Assembly (NCBI GenBank): GCA_964385155.1
Contig: CAYLNG010000003.1
Span: 74,784 to 138,783 of the forward strand
Source: an uncultured Verrucomicrobiota bacterium
GTDB taxonomy: Bacteria; Verrucomicrobiota; Kiritimatiellia; SS1-B-03-39; UBA6053
Reading direction: 5' to 3'
DNA length: 64,000 nucleotides
Shown here piece by piece: positions 8,070 to 25,153 of this stretch (position 1 is the first letter of the stretch; the number at the start of each line of letters is the position of its first letter). The position numbers were made by a program, and so were the translations under genes. Below the pieces are notes generated by a model that was not told the origin of the DNA, made no database searches, and saw only the letters and a list, made by a program, of their open reading frames with translations.

Positions 8070-8125
8070 GCGCGGACATTCCTGTCCGCGGAAACATCCC
8101 ACCCCCAAAAAAACGGCGGGCACCA
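8070..8125. repeat. Left copy of perfect 56-bp direct repeat bracketing the BREX island (attL-like)
   Basis: gcgcggacattcctgtccgcggaaacatcccacccccaaaaaaacggcgggcacca is identical base for base to 25098-25153. It starts 7 nt after the smc stop and contains a hairpin cgcggaca/tgtccgcg (8071-8090). Confidence 0.95.
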
Positions 8126-8148
8126 TGTGAAAAGTTTAGTCGAGTTTT

Positions 8149-8901
8149 CTATTGTTTCAATTTCAACAGCTCATCGTCCAGCCCATAGCGAACCACGTCG
8201 ATCCGGTCGCTGCGCTGGGAAACAAAATCTCCTGTCATCACAGGGAGCTGGAATGTGAAGAATGCCGGGTTGTTCAGGAGCAGCCCCAATGCGCCCTTGG
8301 CCTCCGGGGTGGCCAGGAGTGCGGACTCGAACATCAGGATGGCCAGGTTTGGCCCGGCAATGCTCACCGGAGCGGCTTTCTCATAGCAGCCTTTGGCCTC
8401 GGAATCTTTCAGGGCTCCCCAGGCGACAAAGGAGCGGATGACGAACCGGGCATAGCGGCTGACGGTTTGCCGGTCGCCGTACTGTTCCTTCAGGCGGTTG
8501 ATGATCTGGGTCTGGGTCACCTGATCCTGCAAGGCCAGCAAACGGCCGGTCTGGCGGGCCACATTGAACCAGAAGGGATAGACCGCCGAGATCATCCCCC
8601 AGTGGACCGCCAGGGCCATGGACGGGTTTTCCCTCAGAAACGCCAGCGAGGCATCCCGGAATGGAATCAACTCGGGGTCAGGAGAGACCCAGATCTTCAT
8701 CAGATTGTTGACGACAAAGGTCCGGGTCTGATCACTTCGTTCGCCTTCGGAGCCGTTGCCTTTTCGATCCGCGAGGAACTCATGCAGCTCCTGGCGGATG
8801 GTTTTGGCGTCGAGTCTCGCCAGCAGCAGATTGGCTGCTTTTTGCATCCACTCAAAACGAATCGCCTGCTTGATGCCAATGGCTTCGTGTCTTTTGCCCA
8901 T
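8149..8901 (-). CDS. brxA: BrxA-like protein (last gene of type 3 BREX operon)
   Basis: 250 aa, no catalytic motifs. Assignment is mainly positional (terminal gene after pglZ, TGATG overlap with the pglZ stop), plus a size and helical character compatible with DUF1819/BrxA. Confidence 0.55.
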   Translation of the reverse strand: MGKRHEAIGIKQAIRFEWMQKAANLLLARLDAKTIRQELHEFLADRKGNGSEGERSDQTRTFVVNNLMKIWVSPDPELIPFRDASLAFLRENPSMALAVHWGMISAVYPFWFNVARQTGRLLALQDQVTQTQIINRLKEQYGDRQTVSRYARFVIRSFVAWGALKDSEAKGCYEKAAPVSIAGPNLAILMFESALLATPEAKGALGLLLNNPAFFTFQLPVMTGDFVSQRSDRIDVVRYGLDDELLKLKQ

Positions 8902-10955
8902 CACCGTGTCCTCCTTTCAAACTTCACAAGGGGCACGATAACTTCTTCGATGGCTACACCGCCGTGACCTACGATGGCATCTCCCGGGTTCACGAATGCG
9001 TCGCGGCCACCGGCCACCAGGGGGAAATAATCTGCGGGCAACCCGACCGGCTGCCACTCGTGGGCAAACGGGAAGGCCCCAGCCACCTGAGCTCGGAGTT
9101 CCGGCGAGGGATAGACACGAACCCGCTCGCCGCGAGTTTCGGCAATAACACCTTCAGACGGGCGGCCTTTGCCTTCGCATTGGATGTTGCCGTGATCGGC
9201 CGTCAGCCAGACATCGTAGCCGTATTCCAGCAGTTGGCCGACCAGCGCAACCAGAAACCCACCCTCGCACCATTGCTTGATCTGGTTGTGCATCCCGGCC
9301 GAACCGAGTTGCATGCCGTGCATGATCTTGTCGACCTTGTCCACGACCAGCCCCACCACCTTGGTCTTCCCGGGGTGGATTGCGGAGTCGAGGACGCCCG
9401 CAGCATCGCCGTCGCCAAGACCTCGCTGGTAGGCGACATCCAGCCGGGACAGACCATGGCCTTCCCAGAACTGCTTCCAGAGTTTCTCTTCGCTGTTGGT
9501 CGAGTTAATGGATGACGGGAAATAGAGCGGCGGCTTACCGGAGAAGATCGACTGCCGCGATACCGAGGTCAGCGTCGGAATCCAGGCGAAGGTCGCGGAT
9601 TCGCGCATGACCAGATTGGCGTCCTGCTTTTGCAGAAGCTGGCGAATGGTTACCCACTGATCCAAGGCCAGGCCGTCAACCACAATCAACGCGGCACGGC
9701 TGCTACCGGAGTCCTCGATATCCCGAGCCAGGCGGCGCGGCACATGGTGGAGCATGGCAGGATTAGTCGGCGGCAAGTTGATCAGACTGGAGTAGTGGTC
9801 GGCCAGCCAAGCGGCAAAGGTCGCGTTCAGTGCATCGCCGATTTCCCTGAGCCGGGTCTGATACTCGGTGCTGTTGCCACAATGAACCAGCGAAGAAAGT
9901 TCGGCCCATTTCAACGCAAAGGCGGTCCAGTCCGAGTAACGCGCTTCCGCAGTGGGCAGTTCCTTCTCGACAAGGCCAAACAAGCGAGAGATCCGCAGCT
10001 CGTCATCGTCCACGCCGGAGGTGGCGATGCCGCTTCGGACCCAGGACCCGGCATCCACTTCAATGCCTTTGGCCTCGACAGGGGTGAGTTTCCCCTCCAG
10101 GAACAGGTTGTCGATGTAGACCTTGATGTCCTGATGGTCGAACGGCAGGCGATCAGGGCCGGGATAACGAAAGTGCGGGGTGCGAGGTCCGTAGTGCGTT
10201 TCGGGTTCGCGAACTGTGGGTTCCGCACAGCGCACTCCGCACTTCGCACTCAAGAAGAGCGGCCAGCGTTCCTGCAAAAAGGCGAAGAAGGCCTCATCGT
10301 CCGGAACGATCTCGGAAAGCGGCCAGGCTTTGAACCCATCATGCCCTTTGAGAACCTGGATAAGCCGCTCAGCCAGCATCAGCGGGATCTGTAGCTTCCC
10401 ATAGTGCAGGCGCAGCAATGCGCGAAGCAGCTCCACCTCGCCCCCAATTAGTTCCGCCGCAATGCCGAACACATGACGGAGAATGAAATCCTTGGTGGCG
10501 TTGTCGCCCATGCGATCCGGCGGCGACTTGCGCTGGGCCTCAAAAAGCGAATCCAGCAAGCTCCTGTCGAGCTTTTCAATGACCGGATAGCTCAGGTTGG
10601 GAAAGAGATCCCCCAAGTTGAATGAAAGCTTGCGGCCCGCCTGGAGTAGGTCGTAAGGCAAAGATTCCAGCTCCGCATCCTGCAAGCGGAGGACTACCAC
10701 CAGATCGGTGTGCTCACCCCGGTCCCAGATCGAACGGTACTTTGACTCATAGGCGTATCTGAATTCGACCGGATCACTGAACTCGATCAGGTCGAACCCG
10801 CGCCCGCGAAGCTCCAATGCCAGCTTCTCCTCGGTCAGCAGACAATCCGGGTCCGCGACCAGGGTCAGCTTGCTGACGTTGGGCACAAAGTCGTTCAGGA
10901 TGGCGTCTCGCCAGGAGGGAGAGTGCGAAGTGCGTTGTGCGGAGTGCGTTGTCAT
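8901..10955 (-). CDS. pglZ: BREX alkaline-phosphatase-superfamily protein PglZ
   Basis: 684 aa. C-terminal half has a PglZ-type pattern: AALIVVDGLALDQW, IPTLTSVSRQSIFSG, VDKIMHG, WLTADHGN. ATGA overlap with the upstream four-helix-bundle gene. Confidence 0.85.
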   Translation of the reverse strand: MTTHSAQRTSHSPSWRDAILNDFVPNVSKLTLVADPDCLLTEEKLALELRGRGFDLIEFSDPVEFRYAYESKYRSIWDRGEHTDLVVVLRLQDAELESLPYDLLQAGRKLSFNLGDLFPNLSYPVIEKLDRSLLDSLFEAQRKSPPDRMGDNATKDFILRHVFGIAAELIGGEVELLRALLRLHYGKLQIPLMLAERLIQVLKGHDGFKAWPLSEIVPDDEAFFAFLQERWPLFLSAKCGVRCAEPTVREPETHYGPRTPHFRYPGPDRLPFDHQDIKVYIDNLFLEGKLTPVEAKGIEVDAGSWVRSGIATSGVDDDELRISRLFGLVEKELPTAEARYSDWTAFALKWAELSSLVHCGNSTEYQTRLREIGDALNATFAAWLADHYSSLINLPPTNPAMLHHVPRRLARDIEDSGSSRAALIVVDGLALDQWVTIRQLLQKQDANLVMRESATFAWIPTLTSVSRQSIFSGKPPLYFPSSINSTNSEEKLWKQFWEGHGLSRLDVAYQRGLGDGDAAGVLDSAIHPGKTKVVGLVVDKVDKIMHGMQLGSAGMHNQIKQWCEGGFLVALVGQLLEYGYDVWLTADHGNIQCEGKGRPSEGVIAETRGERVRVYPSPELRAQVAGAFPFAHEWQPVGLPADYFPLVAGGRDAFVNPGDAIVGHGGVAIEEVIVPLVKFERRTR
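10223..10251 (-). repeat. CGCAC-rich motif, copy 1 (inside pglZ)
   Basis: ccgcacagcgcactccgcacttcgcactc. The 21-nt core cgcactccgcacttcgcactc (10231-10251) is identical to 11337-11357. The 29-nt version matches 11329-11357 with 2 mismatches. Confidence 0.9.
10921..10948 (+). repeat. CGCAC-rich motif, copy 2 (inverted orientation, first codons of pglZ)
   Basis: gagtgcgaagtgcgttgtgcggagtgcg contains the reverse complement of the core (gagtgcgaagtgcg + gcggagtgcg) with a 4-nt insertion. It lies 4 nt from the stop of the four-helix-bundle gene. Confidence 0.85.
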
Positions 10956-24343: not shown

Positions 24344-24855
24344 GCTTGTCCTGCCTCTCTATTGTTTTTTGCCGAATCGACCGTGGCCGAGCCATCCATG
24401 CCCACAATCAGCGCATCGACCGAGTCATAGCTGCGGTACTCGGGATGGCCGGTTTCGGCGTACAAAAGCCTCCCGGAATTCATGATTCCGTTCCACGAAG
24501 CCACCACGGACCGATTTCTCGAAATGGACTGCAGCAGGCGCAAGGGGTCCTGCTGGAGATCCTTGTCGAAGAGGATCTCGAGATTATCCAGCACCACGGG
24601 TGACTGAGCCTGATCCGCTATCTGGTCGAGGATGCCCGGCAACCGAAGCGACCGCTGCTTTGCCGTCAACTCAAGCAGCTCGCCGGAAAGCGCCAGATTG
24701 ACGTTGACGACGGATGAGCCGAACTCCTCGGCAACTTCCCGAAGAACGTCGGTCTTGCCGGAACCGGTCTCACCCACCAGCAACACCAGGCGGTGATACA
24801 AGCCTTCGGCTGCCTGGAGGGATCGTTTTATCTTGTCGTGAATCGGCTCGGGCAT
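24340..24855 (-). CDS. brxF: Small P-loop ATPase, BrxF-like (first gene of type 3 BREX operon)
   Basis: 171 aa from ATG 24855 (the ORF-track start at 24882 is GTG). [14 protein letters not shown] is Walker A and VVLDNLE is Walker-B-like. It sits immediately upstream of brxC. Confidence 0.6.
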
Positions 24856-25097
24856 TCTCCTGTAATACGGTAAGCCCTTCACAAATAAAGCCTAAAGGTA
24901 TGCCTCGATCTAAGGTAACCTGATCGGTCGAAATTCTTAGAACTCTTTTCCTGAAACTTAAGCAAAACCAAATAGCATAAACAATCACATCTATTTTTAC
25001 ATTAACCATTTATAAATTCAATATACCCAGACAGATCCTCACAATCATCCTCCAACTCTACATCCCCCCCCAAAAAAAATGAAGCACTCAAACCGGA

Positions 25098-25153
25098 GCG
25101 CGGACATTCCTGTCCGCGGAAACATCCCACCCCCAAAAAAACGGCGGGCACCA
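25098..25153. repeat. Right copy of perfect 56-bp direct repeat (attR-like)
   Basis: Identical to 8070-8125. Only here does the sequence continue (ggcccgccg) to complete the katG terminator hairpin. Confidence 0.95.

Follow-up and report, generated by a model that had tools for sequence, protein, structure and literature searches.

Chromosomal islands that are bracketed by direct repeats and carry no integrase have been described as cis-mobilizable elements (CIMEs) or 'anchored' islands, the integrase-less nitrogen-fixation island of Pseudomonas stutzeri with its flanking repeats being a case in point (PMC4174501). Among defense loci, the core defense hotspots cDHS1/2 of Pseudomonas aeruginosa show no mobile-element markers, and their transfer by homologous recombination has been proposed (PMC10250203). 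A third relevant configuration is the Campbell-type insertion-duplication produced by suicide plasmids, with the topology flank-H-insert-H-flank, in which the repeated segment H is ordinary host sequence of arbitrary extent. Here we analyze a locus with the same topology, a type 3 BREX (bacteriophage exclusion) defense island that lies between the smc and katG genes in a stretch of 64,000 nucleotides (the window) from contig C3 of the draft genome of a bacterium of the Kiritimatiellota, within the PVC (Planctomycetes-Verrucomicrobia-Chlamydiae) group. The island is bracketed by a perfect 56-bp direct repeat that consists of host DNA, it encodes no recombinase, and its cassette is foreign; tentatively, we infer that it was inserted by a single crossover through the 56-bp sequence. 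How chromosomal defense systems without mobility genes enter and leave genomes is an open question, for which this locus is a very clean case, with the operon alone between perfectly preserved junctions and a cassette that circulates among many phyla.

Comparison with the described systems indicates that the locus is a clean, not an unprecedented, 'anchored' defense island, that is, a documented example that establishes no new principle. Like CIMEs, it consists of cargo only, has direct repeats located 3' of host genes and lacks an integrase or transposase; it differs in that the 97%-complete draft contains no helper element with this site, that the repeat is in part a dispersed hairpin of the repetitive extragenic palindrome (REP) type, and that related BREX cassettes elsewhere lack such repeats. 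In common with cDHS1/2, it places defense cargo between housekeeping genes without mobility genes, whereas those hotspots are not described with a long, perfect bracketing duplication. When set against the typical integrase-type island, the locus has the repeats at its ends, without a recombinase gene and without att repeats on related elements. A literature search for BREX systems with direct repeats gave nothing specific.

The two copies of the repeat, at positions 8070-8125 and 25098-25153, are identical at 56 of the 56 positions, as established both by direct reading and by a repeat search of the window; they are spaced by 17,028 bp from start to start, with 16,972 bp between them. To the left of the copies, 5 of 8 nucleotides agree, so that a weak extension to 64 nt at 95% identity can be traced. 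A 22-nt piece of the repeat has an expectation of 0.00 in shuffled windows, and the full 56-mer occurs at these two sites only in the whole assembly (3,217,791 bp in 93 contigs). The left copy starts 7 nt past the stop codon of smc (4422-8063, plus strand; TIGR02168, E=0) and breaks off in the loop of a terminator hairpin, where island DNA begins, which ties the duplication to the insertion junction. The right copy runs natively into the second arm of the intrinsic terminator (25135-25164, minus strand) of katG (25193-27373, minus strand; TIGR00198, E=0). This terminator consists of the stem AACGGCGGGC / GCCCGCCGTT, the RNA loop CUGGU and U7; the 13-bp stem is present in both the minimum free energy and the centroid structures, with z = -4.6 on the plus strand. 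Only the distal arm, the loop and the U-run of the terminator are inside the repeat, and only the right copy continues with GCCCGCCGTT, which in the fold closes the 13-bp stem ahead of the U-run on the katG strand; this arm is missing from the left copy. The original prediction, made from the letters alone, had described perfect 56-bp direct repeats between the convergent smc and katG genes that stop in the katG terminator loop, with the stem completed by the right copy alone, and the repeat search, the profile matches of the two genes and the fold bear out all of this.

The repeat opens with ~22 nt (GCGCGGACATTCCTGTCCGCGG) from a dispersed, lineage-specific family of REP-type hairpins, the structure here being GCGCGGACA-TTCC-TGTCCGCGG. 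In the left copy, the hairpin (8070-8091, plus strand; GCGCGGACA-TTCC-TGTCCGCG) is preceded on the smc side by AAAATGGG, which does not fit the family consensus, whereas in the right copy (25090-25119, plus strand) the consensus 5' prefix AAACCGGA (A-C-CGGA) is found on the island side of the repeat boundary. The core of the family, GGAGCGCGGACAYTCNTGTCCGC, has 26 copies in this genome compared to 0 for a reversed-pattern control. The sister species, the sole other member of the genus, has 14 copies, and one further genus of the family has 36; any of the remaining genomes searched has one copy at most. The hairpin part of the repeat is thus a dispersed, lineage-restricted extragenic palindrome, whereas the last 34 nt of the 56-mer are outside the family consensus and have no other occurrence in the genome. 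The idea that a dispersed genome-wide element might account for the repeat, and would make its presence at both ends coincidental, applies therefore to its 5' third, with the 26 copies, and fails for the full 56-mer; a dispersed repeat as the explanation of the whole was rejected because just the 20-22-nt hairpin recurs and the match of every other copy ends with the 20-nt hairpin stretch. Given that the unique 34-nt part is shared by both copies, they are tied to each other, and their pairing is not coincidental. The 56-bp repeat is host DNA, in which the REP-type hairpin is followed by a spacer and then by the first arm of the katG terminator together with its loop.

The inserted DNA (8126-25097, minus strand; 16,972 bp) comprises a nine-gene operon, with 23 nt after the last stop codon and a 242-nt region upstream of the first start codon; nine abutting or overlapping minus-strand open reading frames (ORFs) fill the rest. 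Six of these genes, in one operon and in the canonical order brxF-brxC-pglXI-brxH-pglZ-brxA (PADLOC E-values from 5e-67 to 0), identify the cargo as type 3 BREX; an IetA/IetS pair is nested in the operon, which includes a four-helix-bundle gene as well. The operon starts with brxF (24340-24855; PDLC02497, 5e-67), the start codon of which is the ATG at 24855, where the homology to all other cassettes begins, and continues with brxC/pglY (DUF6079; 20612-24343; PF19557, E=0; PDLC02482, E=0) and the pglXI methyltransferase gene (17864-20563), which is supported by Pfam and PADLOC (E=0). The second, nested defense system consists of the AAA+ ATPase gene ietA (16857-17903; PDLC04232, 2e-152; PF00004) and the adjacent S8 subtilase gene ietS (14240-16864; PF00082; PDLC04233, E=0). 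The remaining genes encode a BrxH-type SNF2 helicase (11326-14232; PDLC02500, the BrxHI/BrxHII model, E=0), a four-helix-bundle protein of the 23S rRNA IVS type (10952-11341; Pfam), PglZ (8901-10955; Pfam and PADLOC, E=0) and BrxA (8149-8904; PDLC02444, 1e-120); all nine are defense or accessory genes and are on the minus strand. None of the nine ORFs is a recombinase, with no tyrosine recombinase, serine recombinase, DDE or Y1 match in Pfam and PADLOC, in accord with the earlier statement that no integrase, recombinase or transposase is encoded in the island. The entire contig C3 is also free of matches to PF00589, PF00239, PF01609 and PF01797, whereas genome-wide there are 9, 2, 4 and 7 such matches, respectively.

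The cassette itself is, by the DNA comparisons, a widely exchanged module. Relatives of BrxA and BrxF with 90-98% amino acid identity are present in many genomes that are labeled, among many others, as Desulfobulbus, Oleidesulfovibrio, Stutzerimonas, Dichelobacter, Thiohalocapsa, Phycisphaerae, Kiritimatiellia and Clostridiales, and the DNA identity of the cassette to those carriers is 90-97%, which across phyla points to wide exchange. This identity to cassettes in unrelated phyla, together with the low GC content of pglX (41-47% compared to 60-69% in the flanks), supports the claim that the island is foreign. In every locus, the homology to the window starts exactly at the brxF ATG (24855) and ends ~7 nt beyond the brxA stop codon (8156). 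Among themselves, the other carriers have a further stretch in common upstream of brxF, 50 to more than 800 bp in length, in which a small HTH_17 gene is located, and some share several kilobases on both sides of the cassette, whereas the window has none of that; its 242-nt stretch upstream of brxF (37.6% GC) has no match in any locus or in the host genome. In a flanking-repeat test on both merged cassette ends, which recovers the 56-mer in the window, none of the 16 genomes with both cassette ends showed flanking direct repeats within 4 kb, and on long contigs elsewhere the nearest integrases are 26-45 kb from the cassette or further away. The 56-mer as an att site of the cassette was rejected on these grounds, namely the carriers without repeats, the homology confined to the coding block and the non-coding ends without relatives. 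Thus, of the suggestion that the repeat resembles attL/attR, the direct repeats at both ends stand, whereas the resemblance does not extend to the cassette: with 0 of 16 carriers having flanking repeats, the 56-bp repeat is a local event in this host and not a traveling att site.

A scan for exact intra-contig repeats revealed further islands in the same genome. One of these, on contig C25 (G000:C25:29203-40252; L169:1704-12753), is 10.8 kb long, recombinase-less, and bracketed by a 127-nt direct repeat with one mismatch (99%), the start of which coincides exactly with the stop codon of a flanking gene encoding a protein of the tetratricopeptide repeat (TPR) type (judged by eye; no Pfam match); it carries genes for an Eco57I/MmeI-type IIG methylase, a DUF3800 protein and a 1,146-aa SNF2 helicase. 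Another, on contig C2 (G000:C2:224755-237164; L168:2256-14665), is 12.1 kb long, also recombinase-less, with repeats of ~215-300 nt at 91-96% identity, and encodes a TPR lipoprotein along with seven ORFs without a Pfam match, two of them 1,137 and 987 aa in length. The C2 repeat comprises the 3'-terminal ~50 nt of an enoyl-ACP reductase (fabI-like) gene, the terminator of this gene and REP units, and its end is the foot of the same hairpin that is found in the BREX repeat; in relatives, the flanks of this island are on different contigs, and in the sister species near contig ends. By contrast, a classical island on contig C6 (G000:C6:19144-32477) is bracketed by a 52-nt direct repeat of tRNA 3'-end origin and contains tyrosine-integrase-like and resolvase genes. 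The genome accordingly contains three recombinase-less islands with three unrelated repeats made of host segments that differ in length (56 to ~300 nt) and identity (91-100%), and for such a set a sequence-independent route is the most economical explanation.

The explanation that we tentatively favor is, accordingly, a Campbell-type integration in which a single crossover through the 56-bp host sequence was mediated by the homologous recombination of the host or else by a recombinase supplied in trans. An incoming circular or looped molecule carrying the same 56-bp host sequence would undergo one reciprocal crossover with the chromosomal copy, catalyzed by the host homologous recombination machinery, and the product would have one copy of the shared segment at each end of the island. 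A member of the same lineage probably served as the immediate donor, given that the REP family's own 5' prefix adjoins the right copy on its island side. The cassette would contribute no integration function, and the two 56-bp copies would now permit loop-out by the same route. If single crossovers through short host segments, often REP-containing terminators, hold for all three islands, they would represent a simple, integrase-free route to fix and exchange defense cassettes.

Several points weigh against this explanation. A homology of 56 bp is near the lower limit for RecA-dependent exchange and is very short in comparison with the Campbell-type integration of suicide plasmids; the explanation requires, moreover, a natural circle that had gained the host segment. 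The start of the C25 repeat at a stop codon is a hallmark of integrase-type elements that restore their target gene. The genome was assembled with k=55, and the repeat is 56 nt long. Furthermore, no empty site, circle junction or sister strain was found in the collections searched; an empty site would read smc-R-GGCCCGCCG and a circle brxF-upstream-R-TGTGAAAAG (R, the 56-bp repeat). The nearest relatives of the host are all uncultured metagenome-assembled genomes (MAGs). No DNA of the same species was found in genome contigs, metagenome contigs or a collection of 15 billion proteins; exact-pattern scans of genome and metagenome contigs for the repeat core and exact-protein look-ups of KatG and BrxA returned nothing, and the best KatG match is 81% identical among 5.8 billion clusters and 74% among metagenome contigs. 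In none of the relatives that hold both genes, the sister species included, are smc and katG adjacent; they are on different contigs or 0.66 Mb apart, and the 3' flanks of the sister species could not be aligned with the repeat. Given the lack of conspecific sequence and the non-adjacency of smc and katG in these relatives, the ancestral smc-R-katG junction is itself a reconstruction.

Alternative origins of the duplication have to be weighed against the same evidence. Site-specific integration, with the 56-mer as the identity block of an att site, is possible although unlikely; the tyrosine or serine recombinase would have worked in trans or would have been the product of an adjacent gene that was later deleted, the element then being CIME-like or an 'anchored' island. 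In its favor are the long, perfect direct repeats at both ends, the repeat boundaries, of which one coincides with a palindromic hairpin and one falls within a hairpin loop, the 242-nt AT-rich stretch that adjoins the right copy and the exact coincidence of the C25 repeat start with a stop codon; moreover, the genome encodes 9 tyrosine and 2 serine recombinases, and the C6 island shows that tRNA-flanked integrase islands occur in it. However, there is no further att-like 56-mer in the genome, so that no helper element with the same site is visible, and the three unrelated repeats would need three different helpers. Elsewhere the cassette has neither an att site nor an adjacent integrase (the nearest being those at 26-45 kb), the island has just 23 nt and 242 nt of non-coding DNA with no integrase remnant, and at the right repeat boundary the partner sequences are dissimilar beyond the boundary. 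A scenario that we consider rather improbable is that the two copies predate the cassette, being REP-type members homogenized by gene conversion or produced by local REP-mediated duplication, with BREX later exchanged into a defense hotspot. The 5' third of the repeat is indeed a dispersed REP-type element, the REP-like prefixes of the two copies have mismatches at 3 of their 8 positions whereas identity is complete over the 56 nt that follow, a degenerate partial third copy is present at 25058-25088, and integrase-less core defense hotspots exchanged via conserved flanks have been described (PMC10250203). This scenario leaves without explanation the 34 nt that follow the hairpin, which are outside the family consensus and found nowhere else, and the fact that the left copy breaks off within the terminator loop at the very position where foreign DNA takes over.

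The assembly adds a further alternative, namely an empty-site chromosome along with a separate 17,028-bp circle, or a sub-population, in which the island is not integrated or the state is mixed; we regard this as improbable. There are 38 end-to-start overlaps of exactly 55 nt between contigs and none of 56 nt, indicative of a k=55 de Bruijn assembly, and two 1.3-kb contigs, C79 and C80, with terminal self-overlaps of 56 and 55 nt are circular paths in such a graph. The repeat, at k+1, would collapse into a single edge with two inputs and two outputs, and both layouts hold the same k+1-mers, so that the integrated topology rests on the choice made by the assembler; furthermore, the closest relatives all being MAGs, the genome is probably a metagenome assembly. 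Nevertheless, reads of more than ~60 nt cross the repeat, and assemblers resolve such nodes with their help; the lengths of exact intra-contig repeats form a continuous series (100, 96, 86, 70, 65, 56, 53, 52 and so on) without a pile-up at 56 beyond the small circular-looking contigs; and a 17-kb circle without replication genes would be unstable. Given that no contig ends in the 56-mer, only the two topologies are possible, and because both need the 56-mer on both partners, the shared 56-bp site stands either way. A mis-join through a third locus that shares the 56-mer was rejected for the same reason, the absence of contigs ending in it. Finally, a target-site duplication by staggered cleavage 56 nt apart, through a transposase, casposase or Cas1-like enzyme or through a hairpin-specific HUH/Y1 nick followed by fill-in, is speculative and very improbable, although both repeat boundaries coincide with hairpin features, the genome has Y1 transposase-like genes flanked by the same hairpin family, and the C2 repeat also ends at the foot of this hairpin. 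A transposon would be expected to have terminal inverted repeats and a duplication of 2-15 bp; the repeat search of the window found no terminal inverted repeats at the island ends, and lengths of 56, 127 and more than 215 nt are far beyond known target duplications, as the original prediction had argued for the 56 bp. In addition, IS200/RAYT-type chemistry (RAYT, REP-associated tyrosine transposase) leaves no duplication, the boundary shifts by ~4 nt relative to the hairpin between the BREX and C2 islands, and the Y1 protein is below the curated IS200 and RAYT cut-offs.

The REP-type hairpins resemble REP/RAYT systems in being short, GC-rich palindromes with ~26 dispersed copies and a lineage-restricted distribution, in often breaking contigs, with many copies located at contig ends, and in flanking a Y1_Tnp-domain gene on the 1.15-kb contig C90, which has the hairpin at both ends. 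They differ in that the Y1 protein scores 47.8 bits against the NCBIfam IS200 model (cut-off 55) and 18.3 bits against the RAYT model (cut-off 80), below both, and in that no link leads from the enzyme to the insertion of the island. One could nevertheless conceive of the hairpin as anchoring a general mechanism by which this lineage captures recombinase-less islands, a long shot to which we give hardly any credence. A hairpin-specific HUH/Y1 (RAYT-like) enzyme would nick at the hairpin foot and prime copying of adjacent host DNA over a variable distance before joining foreign DNA, so that the flanking duplication would start at the hairpin foot and end arbitrarily, after 56 nt in the BREX island and ~215-300 nt in the C2 island. 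If this were true, REP/RAYT systems would be builders of defense islands.

The family is compound, with the hairpin GGAGCGCGGACAYTCNTGTCCGC followed by GAGCCCCACGCC..GGCGTGGGTGAGGGTCAC units, for example on contigs C90 (1-1150), C42 (110-4413), C17, C24 and C37. The degenerate partial third copy just inside the right island end (25058-25088) corresponds to the 3' part of the repeat, a C-run/A-run segment (ACATCCCCCCCCAAAAAAAA...), with 19-20 nt at 95% identity; on the minus strand, this segment folds as a terminator-like hairpin with T8 downstream. Earlier events at the insertion site may have left it behind. On the right flank, the ATG of katG overlaps the stop codon of a Fur/PerR-family gene (27370-27821/27840).

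Within the cassette, several differences from other type 3 BREX loci are apparent. The nested arrangement of IetAS is the same in a few of them (L036, L043, L060, L070), whereas the window copy has an additional four-helix-bundle gene and a non-homologous pglX center. That center (~18600-20270; 41-47% GC) has no DNA homology to any of the ~80 related cassettes while both ends of the gene match, which suggests a swapped specificity region. The four-helix-bundle gene is bracketed by inverted CGCAC-rich repeats (10921-11357) and corresponds to a homology gap (10913-11366), the gene being absent from nearly all other cassettes and present in L043; bracketed in this way and missing from nearly all cassettes, it has the appearance of a small, separate insertion into the operon. 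In most brxF loci (e.g. L110:9107-9991), a small, conserved HTH_17 (AlpA/Xis-type) gene immediately precedes brxF, along with conserved DNA, and the window copy differs from most carriers in having neither. Several carriers share amidoligase_2, GATase_6 and DUF4815 genes and ~4 kb downstream of brxA, all of which the window copy lacks. In a 'candidatus Porisulfidus' MAG (L101:11231-12648), a ~150-nt fragment of the brxA 3' end is present in four more copies downstream of brxA, with a spacing of ~420 nt. Elsewhere in the host genome, a ~30-nt unit (GCTGTGAACTGATTCCAATTTCCCCCTC) recurs many times in the region G000:C1:224126-227196, the copies being spaced mostly by multiples of 66 nt, and the whole looks like a CRISPR array.

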